A DNA stretch of 64,000 nucleotides from Alphaproteobacteria bacterium (GTDB taxonomy: Bacteria > Pseudomonadota > Alphaproteobacteria > GCA-2731375). Positions 55,160-61,451 of the stretch are shown piece after piece (position 1 is the stretch's first letter; each line of letters starts with the position of its first letter). The stretch spans positions 1-64,000 of the forward strand of contig CBDDBZ010000024.1 in assembly GCA_965225945.1 (NCBI GenBank), read 5' to 3'. The position numbers were made by a program, and so were the translations under genes. Under the pieces are notes generated by a model. It did not search any database and was not told the origin of the DNA. It was given only the letters and a program-made list of their open reading frames with translations.

Positions 55160-55785
55160 TCAACTTCCTGGCACAACACCCGCTGGCAACGCAGTGACAT
55201 GTCGTGCGATCGCACGGGGATGAGCGAACCAGATAAGATCGCGCTGCGAATGATGGGCAATGTGCGCGAGCGCGTCGCGGACCAGCTTTAGCCGGAATGG
55301 CTGCCCGACCGTCATGGGGTGCATCGCAACCGCGCAGACGAGAGGCCGCTCGGTGCATTGTTCGATCATTTCATCGAACTGGTCGACGATCATATCAGCG
55401 AATTCACGTGCGCCCTGATGCCGAAACAGAATTGCGATTGAGTCGTTGACCTCCAACGGATATGGGACAGACAGGATCCGACCGCTACGCGTCTTCATCC
55501 AGAACGGTTGATCGTCGGCGCACCAATCCATGATGTACTCGTAGCCGGCCTCCTGAAGGAGATCGATGGTAACGTCACTATTGGACATCCCGGGGCCCAT
55601 CCATCCGCGTGGAGGGTTGCCCTCATGACGTTCGATGGTCTCCGTGACGGAGGCGATCATTCGCGCCTCGTCCTCGGCCCACATCGAGCCTTGATGCTCA
55701 GACTGGGTGCGACCATGACCGATCACTTCATCGCCGCGCGCGCGAACACGTTCCATGATCTCGGGACACTACTCGTAGATCAGAC
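55160..55785 (-). pseudogene. 3' half of a second PuuE-like deacetylase split by the composite transposon
   Basis: continues NASSLI from 61170-61451 as YE*CPEIMERVRARGDE; GHGRT, MHPMTVGQPFR; in-frame TAG at 55769-55771. Confidence 0.9.
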
Positions 55786-56540
55786 CTTGCCTATCCGGTT
55801 ATCACCCACACCCACTATATGTAGTGTGCACCCATTTTCCTGAGTAAAGCTCGGTGCAGGTCGAAGCGGAGATATCTCCGGCGATGCCGAGCAGGGACTC
55901 GGACGGCATTGTAGCGCCTTTTAGGCGACACTTTAGCGTGGTGGAAATCCTAATCATTGAGTCGGATTTGGCAAAACGCCACGTTGCATAAAGGACCGTC
56001 ACTTCATTGAAATTTATCTGAAATCGGAGGTGAACGACACCGATGGAATATTCCAGGAAATCAGAGCTTCATTGAATTGTAGGATTCGAGTGCCGGATTA
56101 TTCACAAATAGCTCTGTGAACTGGTTTTCAAGTTCGCTCAATACGTCATATGAAGTAAACGGATTGAGGATCACGTTCTTGCGTGTCGCTTCGTCTTCGC
56201 TGCGACTCAAAACGCGCAGGAGACTAACAGGCGCGGACGGGTTCTTCGCAACGATTCGTGCCAGCGCGTCGCTTTCTTCGACTAGTGCCGTCAATCGCTC
56301 AGACGATGTCGTTTCATCAGCAGCTTCCCGTCTGGCCGTGGGTTTCTTCGTTTTTCCCTTGGTCGCCACCGTTCCGTCCCCCGATGTTAAGTACGTGACG
56401 TGAATTAAACTCCGGTTCGGTTTTCAGAACAATCAAGAATTAGCCGGATCGCCTCCTCAATGCGCCTGCGCCGGCCCTTGCCTGCAGTCCAAGGAGACAC
56501 ACTACATATAGTGGGTGTGGGTGATAACCGGATAGGCAAG
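55786..56540 (-). mobile_element. LRV cassette copy 2 (755 bp)
   Basis: 43-bp TIRs at 55786-55828 and 56498-56540. Confidence 0.95.
56061..56369 (-). CDS. LRV passenger protein, copy 2
   Basis: translation identical to 21568-21876. Confidence 0.75.
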   Translation of the reverse strand: MATKGKTKKPTARREAADETTSSERLTALVEESDALARIVAKNPSAPVSLLRVLSRSEDEATRKNVILNPFTSYDVLSELENQFTELFVNNPALESYNSMKL

Positions 56541-56541
56541 C

Positions 56542-57364
56542 GTGAACCATCAAGCCGACGCCACGACGCCGACCGCGGGCGGCGCCAAGGTCCGCTACAT
56601 CAACGCGGAATGGCGGAACCGGGAGGACAGCCCGCGCATCGGCTCACGCGAGAGCCGGCGCGCCATGACCTCGTTCCAGGACGTGCTGGTGCACGACGTC
56701 AGGGCCGAATTCCAGGCGGGCCAGATCGATCTCGACCGCTCGGGCTTCACGCTGTGCGAGAACCTCACCGAATGCGGCGACTTCCGCGACGACGCGGTGA
56801 TCGAGGCGCAATACTATCCCGAGATGATCGACCTCGTCCGGCGGATGAGCGGCGCCGACCACGTCTTCGTCAGAGCGCACCTCGTACGCACCGAAATACC
56901 CACCGATTTCAACGACGGCTACGCGCGCTTCGTCCACTGCGACTTACAACATCCGGCTGATCGAGGAATTGGCGCATGAATTGCTGGCGCGATACGACGT
57001 CGAGGCGAAGCCGAACTGGACTTACGCCTGGTACAACACCTGGCAGCCCTTCGATCATCAGGTGCAGAAAAATCCGCTCGCCGTGATCGACTGGCAAAGC
57101 CTGCCCCTCGAGGACGTGATCGACTACTATTATACTGGCCGCGGCCTCGACAGCCTGACCGCGGCGCCCGTCTACAGCCCCGACCATCGGTTCGATCCCG
57201 GGGATGGAGACGACCGAGACACTGGTGATCAAGCAGTCGACGCGCGGCCCGGCCGGGCGGCGTATTGCCCGCACACTTCCTTCGATCTGCCCGGCAGCGA
57301 CGACTTGTTGCCCCGGCGCAGCATCGAAACTCGGTTCCTCGCCGTCTTCGAGGACGCCGCTTAA
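56542..57364 (+). pseudogene. CmcJ/NvfI-like oxidoreductase, frameshifted
   Basis: LDRSGF, YYPE, FVHCD, NPLAVID, PHTSF, RRSIETR; shift near 56944 and a compensating pair near 57195-57237. Confidence 0.75.
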
Positions 57365-59031: not shown

Positions 59032-60321
59032 ATGCACAGGCTGCTCTTTCTCGATCCGGGCCACTTTCACGCCGCGCTCACGCTTCGCGCGGCCAATCCC
59101 CGGGTCGCAGACGAGATCCATCTCCATGCGCCCGAGGGGCCGGAGAGCCAGGCCTTCGTCGATCTGGTGGAAGGCTTCAACGCCCGGGCCGACGCGCCGA
59201 CGGCGTGGCGCTTGGAATGCCATCTCGGTGCGAATTCGCTTCACCGGTTGATCGAGGAGCGCCGCGGCGAGATCGTGATCCTGGCCGGACGCAACGATCG
59301 CAAACTCGCCACCATCCGCCGTCTGCGGGAGGCCGGATTCCACGTCCTGGCCGACAAGCCCTGGCTTACCGGGGCGGGGGCGCTGGGGGATCTCGCCGCC
59401 GCGACCACGCCCGGCCGGCCGCTGGCGATGGACATCATGACCAGCCGGCACATGGCGCTGGCGCGCCTGCGCCGCGCGCTCGTCGGGCAATCGGAGCTGT
59501 TCGGCGCCTTCGAGGCCGGGGGGCCCGGGCCGGCGATCGAGCAGACCTCCCGCCATCACATCCACAAGCTGGTGAACGGCCAGCCGCTCCGCCGGCCGGA
59601 CTGGTATTTCGATTGCCGGGTCCAGGGCGACGGGCTGGTCGACATCCAATCGCACCTGGTCGATCAGGCGCAGTGGTTGATCGCGACGCTGCACGGCCCG
59701 GAGGCCGAACGCGACATCGAGGTGATCCGGGCCCGGCGGTGGCCGACGCCGGTCGGCCGCGAGCTCTACGCCGAGAGCACGGGCGTCGAGGACTATCCGG
59801 AGCTGCCGGCCGGCGTGGTGGTGGACGATGTCATCCAGCTCGCCTGTAACGGCGTGATCGAATTTTCGATCGGCGGCGTGAGGGTGCGCCAGCGGGCCGA
59901 ATGGGGCGCCCGCGAAGCGGAAGGCGGCGGCGACCAGCAGCACGCGGTGGCGCGCGGCAGCGGTGCGCAACTCGTCCTGCGCCAGGGGCCGGAGACCAAC
60001 CACGCGGCGGAGCTGCATGTGGCATCGAGCGGGGCCCGAGATTTGGAATCCCGCCTGGCCGCCGCGGTCGCGGCGCTGGCCGCCGACTTTCCCGGCCTTT
60101 CGATGGCGCCCTCGGAGCTCGGCTTCCGGCTCACCGTCGCGCCCGGGCTCGACGGCGGCCACGAGAGCCACTTTCCCCTGGTGCTCGACGAATTCTTGGA
60201 TCTCTTGGACGGATCGGGCGACGGCGCGGCGCTGGCGGCGCGGATCGGTGCGCGCTACGCCCTCCTCGCCCGGGCTCGAGAAATTGCCGAGGATATCCCC
60301 CCGCCGCCCGACGCGCCCTAG
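59032..60321 (+). CDS. putative Gfo/Idh/MocA-like oxidoreductase
   Basis: [38 protein letters not shown]. Confidence 0.8.
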
Positions 60322-60414
60322 AGCCCCGTGAAGCAGTCCTTCGCGTCGCTCAGGTCTTCTTGCGCCTGTAGCGGAGCCGGCGTTTCTTCCGCTTGCCTTT
60401 CCGGATCTTGGACG

Positions 60415-61169
60415 CTTGCCTATCCGGTTATCACCCACACCCACTATATGTAGTGTGCACCCATTTTCCTGAGTAAAGCTCGGTGCAGGTCGAAGCGGAG
60501 ATATCTCCGGCGATGCCGAGCAGGGACTCGGACGGCATTGTAGCGCCTTTTAGGCGACACTTTAGCGTGGTGGAAATCCTAATCATTGAGTCGGATTTGG
60601 CAAAACGCCACGTTGCATAAAGGACCGTCACTTCATTGAAATTTATCTGAAATCGGAGGTGAACGACACCGATGGAATATTCCAGGAAATCAGAGCTTCA
60701 TTGAATTGTAGGATTCGAGTGCCGGATTATTCACAAATAGCTCTGTGAACTGGTTTTCAAGTTCGCTCAATACGTCATATGAAGTAAACGGATTGAGGAT
60801 CACGTTCTTGCGTGTCGCTTCGTCTTCGCTGCGACTCAAAACGCGCAGGAGACTAACAGGCGCGGACGGGTTCTTCGCAACGATTCGTGCCAGCGCGTCG
60901 CTTTCTTCGACTAGTGCCGTCAATCGCTCAGACGATGTCGTTTCATCAGCAGCTTCCCGTCTGGCCGTGGGTTTCTTCGTTTTTCCCTTGGTCGCCACCG
61001 TTCCGTCCCCCGATGTTAAGTACGTGACGTGAATTAAACTCCGGTTCGGTTTTCAGAACAATCAAGAATTAGCCGGATCGCCTCCTCAATGCGCCTGCGC
61101 CGGCCCTTGCCTGCAGTCCAAGGAGACACACTACATATAGTGGGTGTGGGTGATAACCGGATAGGCAAG
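60415..61169 (-). mobile_element. LRV cassette copy 3 (755 bp)
   Basis: 43-bp TIRs at 60415-60457 and 61127-61169. Confidence 0.95.
60690..60998 (-). CDS. LRV passenger protein, copy 3
   Basis: translation identical to the other copies. Confidence 0.75.
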   Translation of the reverse strand: MATKGKTKKPTARREAADETTSSERLTALVEESDALARIVAKNPSAPVSLLRVLSRSEDEATRKNVILNPFTSYDVLSELENQFTELFVNNPALESYNSMKL

Positions 61170-61451
61170 GATCAGACTACTCGCGTTCTGCGCCGCAGGA
61201 ATTTGGAACTCGTCGAGCACGTCCAATAAACGCCAAATTCCGACCCGAAGGCCATAGTCACGCCAGGCATGATTGCGCTGGGTTTGCGGCGCATCGGTCT
61301 TGAACGCGGGGTCGGAGCCCAAGCCAGTGCCGAATGCGAACGTCTCGATGTTATTGCCGACGTAGAATGCCAGTCTCTTACCGTCGGGCCAATCATAGAT
61401 TGGCCTTTCGTCGATCATCGACAGATCGTAGCGACCGTGAGTCGGTAGCAT
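61170..61451 (-). pseudogene. 5' half of the split PuuE-like deacetylase
   Basis: MLPTHGRYD..WPDGKRLAFY..WRDYGLRVG, paralogous to the start of 54248-55156; GAGGA RBS. Confidence 0.9.

Follow-up and report, generated by a model that had tools for sequence, protein, structure and literature searches.

Several described systems show how pairs of transposable elements, or single elements without a transposase, can carry other DNA with them. In the IS6 family, the insertion sequence (IS) IS26 gives rise to translocatable units and pseudo-compound transposons, which involve direct copies, an 8-bp duplication and a circle of one element with adjacent DNA. An 8-bp target duplication is also typical of the IS1595 family, whose founding description is reportedly that of Siguier et al. 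in 2009 and whose transposition chemistry has, to our knowledge, not been established. Mobile insertion cassettes (MICs) consist of IS-type inverted repeats around a passenger gene, encode no transposase and are presumed to be mobilized in trans; we know of no described case of MICs pairing to move chromosomal genes, and a literature search on composites gave none, which is not proof of absence. Here we describe a 5,384-bp unit on contig CBDDBZ010000024.1 of the alphaproteobacterial assembly GCA_965225945.1, within its first 64,000 nucleotides (hereafter the window; C24:1-64000 in our contig numbering). At the level of sequence its structure is confirmed, and the unit is best explained as a composite (compound) transposon made of two 755-bp non-autonomous derivatives of an IS1595-family insertion sequence. 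Composites bracketed by non-autonomous elements are already in print and composite transposition has already been shown for the IS1595 family; the present case combines both with a chromosomal cargo. The IS1595-family precedent is Tn7052 (ISEc69-mcr-2-pap2-ISEc69), described as having moved in one piece, generating 8-bp duplications, in a host mutated in recA (PMC7835479). For non-autonomous elements the described precedents are in Acinetobacter, with class 1 integrons between MITEs (miniature inverted-repeat transposable elements) of the same sequence and a MITE-297 pair around a 76-kb mer region (PMC10969869, PMC6382973), MITEs being characterized there as typically shorter than 500 bp and without coding capacity (PMC10969869).

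The unit (55786-61169; features in Table 1) lies inside a deacetylase-like gene and has the order cassette-cargo-cassette. Its two cassettes, copies 2 and 3 of the window, are identical at 755/755 positions, stand in direct orientation and enclose 3,874 bp of cargo. The 8-mer GATCAGAC is found only on the outer sides of the pair, left of copy 2 and right of copy 3, and the inner flanks are CGTGAACC (56541-56548) and CTTGGACG (60407-60414). Two element copies bracket the cargo, with the target duplicated around the pair and not around each copy, which is the arrangement that defines a composite transposon. The original prediction, made from the letters of the window, had reported the one-sided outer repeats, the unmatched inner flanks and a 5.4-kb unit devoid of transposase, and all three hold: in Pfam searches LRV_2 is the only domain inside a cassette, and tblastn with the 339-aa transposase of IS-A, a related element of this genome, gives no match within 55786-61169.

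An empty counterpart of the insertion site is present in G002, a genome of the same genus (8.0 Mb, 5 contigs), in which the target gene is uninterrupted and carries a single GATCAGAC. Window positions 55601-55785 and 61170-61400 map there at 98% identity and overlap by exactly 8 bases, and the target gene occurs once in the assembly studied. A chance match of the outer flanks is unlikely because of this empty site with its one GATCAGAC and because, among 48 independent perfect target-site duplications (TSDs) of the cassette, identical pairs amount to 1 of 1128. Deletion of 55786-61177, proposed earlier to rejoin the deacetylase frame, does restore ...NASSLIYE, but the frame then meets a TAG stop codon at 55769-55771, at a distance of two codons from the point of insertion; G002 reads TAC (Tyr) there, and either this nonsense change would have come after the disruption, or the gene may already have been dead. 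The high identity to G002 is limited to the two deacetylase-like paralogues (54013-55785 and 61170-61466, 98-99%), the remaining compared DNA being 64-94% identical with matches at scattered places, and the two-gene island looks recently exchanged between species. G002 itself carries about 1.45 kb extra between the two paralogues.

The cargo has only one other copy in the genome, at C34:100947-105008 (99.5% identity), in a cassette-free locus directly downstream of engB and argB. Homology to C34 begins at CGTGAACC and stops at CTTGGACG. Such limits at the inner 8-mers are as expected if cassettes once sat at both sites, each duplicating its 8-mer, and later departed as a pair along with all the DNA they enclosed; the two words rank at the 92.5th and 94.6th genome percentile of target preference, which makes them target-like and places them below most true sites. 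The search for the native locus in relatives that had been proposed did not yield a conserved arrangement: synteny is not conserved, and the G002 homologues, 75-77% identical, are split over two places, so that the label native, as we apply it to C34, draws only on the core-gene context there. The native products are a 234-aa CmcJ/NvfI-family oxidoreductase, a 524-aa acetolactate-synthase-like thiamine pyrophosphate (TPP) enzyme and a 452-aa putative oxidoreductase. All three metabolic genes said to have been brought in are indeed present, but the CmcJ/NvfI-like and TPP genes are frameshifted relative to their native counterparts, the former by a T gained at 56944, a complex 5-nt indel at 57194-57195 and a C lost after 57236, the latter by a G gained at 58614; two of the three genes thus appear dead in the cargo copy. 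Changes private to this copy number seven, namely three substitutions and four indel events. At five sites where C34 differs (57325, 58964, 59336, 59394 and 59400) the cargo shares its letter with contigs of two public runs, X15 and X16, and hence is closer to the native allele of X15 and X16 than to the genome's own C34 copy. Just upstream of the native CmcJ-like gene lies a 184-bp tandem duplication (C34:100960-101327); the cargo lacks it, as does, apparently, the contig of X15.

A blastn census over the genome (6.27 Mb, 39 contigs) places the two cassettes in a large family. The element, 755 bp with perfect 43-bp terminal inverted repeats (TIRs), is present in 64 full copies, accompanied by 22 partial matches, and the exact sequence of copies 2 and 3 is that of 22 of the 64. 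Perfect 8-bp TSDs flank 49 full copies and another four match at 7/8 positions; 11 have none, four of which belong to the two composites of the genome. The target preference is G-W-W-N-N-W-W-C, loosely palindromic and 47% G+C in a 66% G+C genome, and GATCAGAC stands at its 99.6th genome percentile. The one credible open reading frame (ORF) of the cassette encodes 102 aa with a leucine-rich-repeat-variant (LRV) domain, its nearest Atlas clusters being LRV proteins. With 755 bp and this passenger ORF the element falls outside the size range of non-coding MITEs below 500 bp, and for the same two reasons the term mobile insertion cassette fits better than MITE. Cassette matches occur in 4 of the 41 genomes searched (3 of the 40 others). 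The partial matches in G017 (another genus) and G029 (another family) are 99-100% identical, and the exact 43-base terminal repeat is also found in other alphaproteobacterial metagenome-assembled genome records; together these suggest that the cassette has spread horizontally and recently. Among 72,556 plasmid records, none covers at least 80% of the full 755-bp cassette. In the public runs, the cassette contig has a depth of about 10^4 compared with about 10 for the flanks.

Which element could mobilize these cassettes is indicated by their ends. IS-A shares 35 of the 43 TIR bases with the cassette, the first 16 included, and encodes a 339-aa transposase with the domains DDE_Tnp_IS1595 (PF12762, E 3.6e-37) and Zn_ribbon_IS1595 (PF12760, E 3.5e-13), 81.7% identical over 338 residues to the ISAcr1 family transposase. 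Seven copies of IS-A were compared, four with perfect 8-bp repeats (C38, C14, C19 and C34) and three, representing two distinct loci, with repeats that match over 7 bp and are offset by one. The ends related to IS-A, the same 8-bp duplication length and the missing transposase gene together let us class the cassette as a putative non-autonomous IS1595-family derivative. Nine full-length IS-A transposase genes are present, besides many more distant IS1595-family elements, and elements of this family elsewhere in the genome would have to supply the transposase in trans, with IS-A as the candidate helper. Cassette and IS-A co-occur in the assembly studied and in G029. Two longer loci with cassette ends and a transposase, C32:286358-288088 and C4:70085-71927, were considered as an autonomous parent and rejected: in both the cassette is fused to, or hosts, a different 1,078-bp IS1595-family element (IS-B), with a 36% identical transposase.

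Three cassette insertions are missing from a 99.6% identical duplicate region of the genome. The two regions, C19:1-18042 and C33:188340-208722, are collinear, so that an 18-kb stretch is present twice; the cassettes (C33:189816, 194969 and 202596) occur only in the C33 copy, each with an 8-bp overlap in the C19 copy. This duplicate may mean that the assembly is heterogeneous for strains, or else that the stretch was duplicated recently, with a burst of insertions afterwards.

The present unit is not the only pair of this cassette with a shared outer duplication. The 210 terminal-repeat ends were all scanned for pairs with the same outer 8-mer and further ends between them, and two composites came out, this unit and C33:252803-254713. 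In the latter, inverted cassettes surround 401 bp of IS debris and the outer TSD is GTTGATTC; C38:118397-120226 holds the cassette-401 bp-cassette block a second time, one of its cassettes being truncated there. Since the inverted block stands at two loci, pairs of this cassette are, as far as sequence can tell, units that move together, and since inverted copies cannot come from a one-cassette circle, use of the outer ends does occur for this cassette. When 33 adjacent cassette pairs were examined for duplicated cargo, only the present case and the C33/C38 block qualified as composites, and the C19/C33 duplicate came to light as well. The end-pair scan also returned arrays of the form cassette-8 bp-cassette or cassette-8 bp-IS(-A), at C26:1261-3128 and C28:76683-79156, with the same 8-mer outside as well, and a contig of public run X20 likewise contains cassette-8 bp-cassette; the arrays could derive from repeated insertion into a preferred word or from dimer-type intermediates. 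A possible third composite, C19:58919-63038, has outer 8-mers that agree at 7/8 positions, and as these are near the target consensus the agreement may be a chance match.

We propose the following history for the unit. In some close relative, cassettes would have inserted at CGTGAACC and CTTGGACG around the three-gene segment next to argB. An IS1595-family transposase made elsewhere in the cell would then have used the outermost inverted repeats of the pair, and cassette-cargo-cassette would have inserted as one unit into the deacetylase-like gene, duplicating GATCAGAC. We consider it probable that the block inserted as a single unit by transposition, whichever route was taken. The outer-end route is the one we favour, because of the inverted-copy composite at two loci and the precedent of Tn7052, and taken by itself we give it slightly less than an even chance. 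That outer ends rather than a one-cassette circle were used, and where the unit was assembled, are points we infer. Under any scenario of transposition one would expect a cassette, or more than one, next to the native locus on the donor chromosome, and the native locus here is clean. This, together with the allele pattern of the cargo, suggests that the unit was assembled in another strain and may have come in when the deacetylase island was exchanged. Another possibility is a bin of mixed strains, as its 5.58% contamination and the C19/C33 duplicate would allow.

Independent data bear on this history as well, and a number of observations weigh against it. Parts of the stretch are contained in 20 public runs, the best six of which carry 0.87-0.89 of the sampled words. 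For four of the runs, each from a different study, Logan contigs were compared over 55300-60460, a span that leaves the right flank outside; runs X2-X14, X17-X19 and X21-X24 were left out of this comparison and provide no evidence either way. In all four runs the contigs over 55300-55785 (99.2-99.8% identical) stop matching at 55785 and continue for 289-624 further letters off the stretch without entering a cassette. Because the 289 extra letters of X20 equal the extent of the G002 homology at 61178-61466, these flank contigs probably represent empty sites. One long contig each in X15 and X16, and two in X20, cover the cargo; they carry the native allele at all four indels and the native letter at 56579, 57694 and 59864 wherever covered, and the X15 contig passes both cargo ends without a cassette. 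That four of the seven private cargo changes are indels could be due to consensus errors in a poorly covered region. It should be noted that cassette position 368 is G in these runs but A in 61 of the 64 copies of this genome; the runs hence represent other strains, and the assembly does not derive from them. Bridges between cassette and unique DNA at 55785/55786, 56540/56541 and 60414/60415 were absent from the contig pieces (32 of 1,477) and loose ends (24 of 239) that were listed; as these are a minority of all pieces and contigs drop rare variants, this does not show that such bridges are lacking. JGI metagenome contigs gave 0 matches to the cassette-cargo junction. The composite, seen at one location only, thus rests on one assembly, and the public contigs neither confirm nor refute the join. 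Within the assembly, CGTGAACC is not the left flank of any of the 64 full copies, so that the donor configuration is absent from this genome. The proposed search for cassettes with the inner 8-mers on their outer sides did find one, C39:5170-5924, which has CTTGGACG to its left as well as to its right; the DNA around it resembles neither the cargo nor the native locus, and we rejected it as a donor and regard the shared word as a coincidence under the target preference. To these points are added a CheckM-type contamination of 5.58%, with the 18-kb stretch present twice at 99.6% and cassettes in one copy only, and the fact that identical direct copies fit an origin from one cassette at least equally well.

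That last point leads to the other route named in the original prediction, in which a circle made up of the 3.9-kb segment and a single cassette would have inserted into the deacetylase gene in the manner of a translocatable unit. Such a circle could have arisen when two direct cassettes recombined, or through intramolecular replicative transposition from one cassette to the second target, and it could have entered by replicative transposition, copying the cassette and creating the 8-bp duplication, or by homologous recombination with a cassette resident at GATCAGAC. The flanking copies are direct and identical at all 755 positions, as this route requires, with the exact sequence shared by just 22 of the 64 copies, and the arrays at C26, C28 and X20 imply that ends of separate copies are often brought together, although repeated insertion into a preferred 8-mer would explain them too. 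A circular intermediate of ISEc69-mcr-2 is mentioned in PMC7835479, citing Sun et al. 2017. On the other hand, no circle, no single cassette resident at GATCAGAC and no one-cassette deletion scar was seen in the census, in G002 or in the contigs, which cannot show circles, and the route cannot make the inverted cassettes of the second composite; we hold it to be possible and, on balance, unlikely. What had been predicted is therefore supported as regards a single insertion, by the empty site, the outer duplication and the bounded cargo, whereas its two routes give the same product and are inseparable here; the family concerned differs from that of IS26, the related transposase being of the IS1595 family and not of IS6/IS26. 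A bolder version would have transposase-less IS1595-family cassettes forming IS26-like translocatable units that leave as a circle and re-enter by replicative insertion. It draws on the identical direct copies, the arrays, the landing in an exchanged island and a cargo allele nearer to other strains, and we rate it as decidedly unlikely. If true, the unit would have carried chromosomal genes between strains, and there would be a first hint that translocatable units can also form outside the IS6 family, with non-autonomous elements driving the pathway.

Two further explanations dispense with unit transposition. The join could be an artefact of assembly or binning, a minority variant or second haplotype having been threaded through the 755-bp repeat, or the cargo misplaced between two cassettes of different loci. 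About 64 identical repeats lie open to mis-threading by assemblers, the strains appear to be heterogeneous, the cargo diverges mainly by indels in a way that resembles consensus error, four public runs with 99.8%-identical flanks show no composite, and the best runs carry only 0.87-0.89 of the sampled words. Yet both cassette-cargo junctions fall exactly at cassette ends and at the limits of native homology, unlike chimeric joins, and a cargo belonging elsewhere would need two more cassettes with unmatched outer flanks, of which there is none with CGTGAACC on the left or a cargo-related CTTGGACG on the right. Moreover, the target gene is single in the assembly, the native C34 copy agrees with the short-read contigs at every indel position, so that the assembly is generally accurate, and the compared runs, which differ from the assembly at cassette position 368, belong to other strains; we therefore think an artefact very improbable. 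Alternatively, homologous recombination among dispersed cassettes, by translocation or inversion and without any transposition of a unit, might have produced the hybrid flanks, for which 64 near-identical substrates are available and of which the 11 copies without matching flanks could be a sign. The census contains no reciprocal cassette joining the deacetylase gene to a flank of the native locus, however, the native locus is intact and cassette-free, and the outer flanks are a perfect 8-bp duplication of a single-copy site, which leaves this explanation with hardly any credibility. Insertion of the composite as one unit remains the reading we prefer.

Table 1. Features of the composite unit and of the gene that it interrupts (window coordinates)
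Feature	Position	Strand	Basis
Interrupted deacetylase-like gene, C-terminal part	55160..55785	-	In-frame TAG at 55769-55771 where G002 has TAC
Left 8-bp target-site duplication GATCAGAC	55778..55785		Sequence; single copy at the G002 empty site
Cassette copy 2, 755 bp, 43-bp perfect TIRs, without transposase	55786..56540	+	Repeat comparison
102-aa passenger ORF, LRV-type domain	56061..56369	-	Pfam PF25591 LRV_2, E 2.6e-8; counterpart at 60690-60998 in copy 3
Cargo, 3,874 bp, starting with CGTGAACC and ending with CTTGGACG	56541..60414	+	Copy of C34:100947-105008
CmcJ/NvfI-family oxidoreductase gene, frameshifted	56665..57364	+	Native 234-aa product matches NCBIfam NF041278, E 3.4e-57
TPP enzyme gene (acetolactate synthase large-subunit-like), frameshifted	57361..58936	-	Native 524-aa product matches NF005760, E 2.8e-232; Pfam TPP_enzyme_C, TPP_enzyme_N
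Putative oxidoreductase gene, 429 aa, frame open	59032..60321	+	Pfam PF16490 Oxidoreduct_C, E 2.2e-57
Small gene severed by the right cassette, its last ~20 codons	60350..60414	-	Native gene runs beyond CTTGGACG on C34
Cassette copy 3, 755/755 identical to copy 2, same orientation	60415..61169	+	Repeat comparison
Right 8-bp target-site duplication GATCAGAC	61170..61177		Sequence; G002 empty site
Deacetylase-like (PuuE/polysaccharide-deacetylase-type) gene, N-terminal part	61170..61451	-	Adjacent paralogue 54248-55156 matches TIGR03212, E 3.5e-28, below the curated cut-off

Besides the two copies in the unit, the window holds one further full cassette, copy 1 (21293-22078), which has grown to 786 bp through an internal 31-bp tandem duplication (21948-22027) and has the TSD GTTCATTC; other copies of 770-787 bp exist in the genome. 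A solo 100-bp right end of the cassette (40518-40617) lies within an ORF in which a Walker-A-like motif was recognized by eye. A near-repeat of the target (41 bp, 95%; 40460-40500 and 40626-40666) brackets this end, which is followed by a perfect 72-bp tandem duplication (40688-40831), and the region looks like a putative aborted or rearranged insertion. The genome is heavily loaded with several mobile-element families. An IS4-family element (61927-63065; 373-aa transposase, NF033591, E 1.7e-78) begins some 480 bp past the target gene's start codon, with about 50 copies of its 3' end genome-wide, and outside the window, at C24:72463-76604, lies a 4.14-kb repeat with about 20 copies at more than 99% identity across the genome. 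Dispersed direct repeats of 89-90% identity are also found in the window, at 44844-44940/53199-53295 (97 nt) and 32015-32105/34311-34401 (91 nt).

The unit offers a clean natural example, since one can identify its target, its donor segment and the family of its helper, although the route itself is already known. As had been predicted, it would be a route for shuffling chromosomal genes, in that a copy of the chromosomal segment found on C34 has come to lie in a deacetylase-like gene. It indicates that abundant transposase-less cassettes, and not only complete ISs, can pick up chromosomal genes and place them elsewhere, and with about 64 cassettes per genome each nearby pair is a potential gene-moving unit, a point of relevance to genome rearrangement in IS-rich marine Alphaproteobacteria. 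In practice the present unit looks to be of little consequence, as its target is a dead gene and, of the three cargo genes, two are apparently dead as well.

Set against the described systems, the locus shares features with each and coincides with none of them. Like the translocatable units of IS26, it has direct copies, an 8-bp duplication and possibly a circle with one element; unlike them, its related transposase belongs to IS1595 and not to IS6, its flanking elements are non-autonomous, and a circle, which contigs cannot show, was not observed. The individual cassette resembles the MICs in having IS-type inverted repeats and a passenger ORF and in lacking a transposase. ISAcr1, an IS1595-family element of Acidiphilium plasmids, is the closest named relative of IS-A, and the terminal 68 nt of the cassette are 83.8% identical to its end; ISAcr1, however, is an autonomous IS, whereas the cassette has no transposase. 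With Tn7052, as described in PMC7835479, the unit has in common the transposase family, direct flanking copies, an 8-bp duplication of an A+T-rich target and, probably, movement as a unit. In that account the flanks of Tn7052 are complete ISs with their own 217-aa transposase and the cargo is a plasmid resistance gene, while both flanks here lack a transposase and the cargo consists of chromosomal metabolic genes, two of them decayed. The Acinetobacter structures, as their descriptions have it, likewise consist of two identical non-autonomous elements that bracket a cargo in the manner of a composite transposon (PMC10969869, PMC6382973). The MITEs described there measure 439-502 bp, have no ORF and belong to another family, whereas the present element is a 755-bp cassette with a passenger ORF; and in contrast to those cases as reported, the cargo here is not an integron, and both its native locus and the empty target site have been identified.

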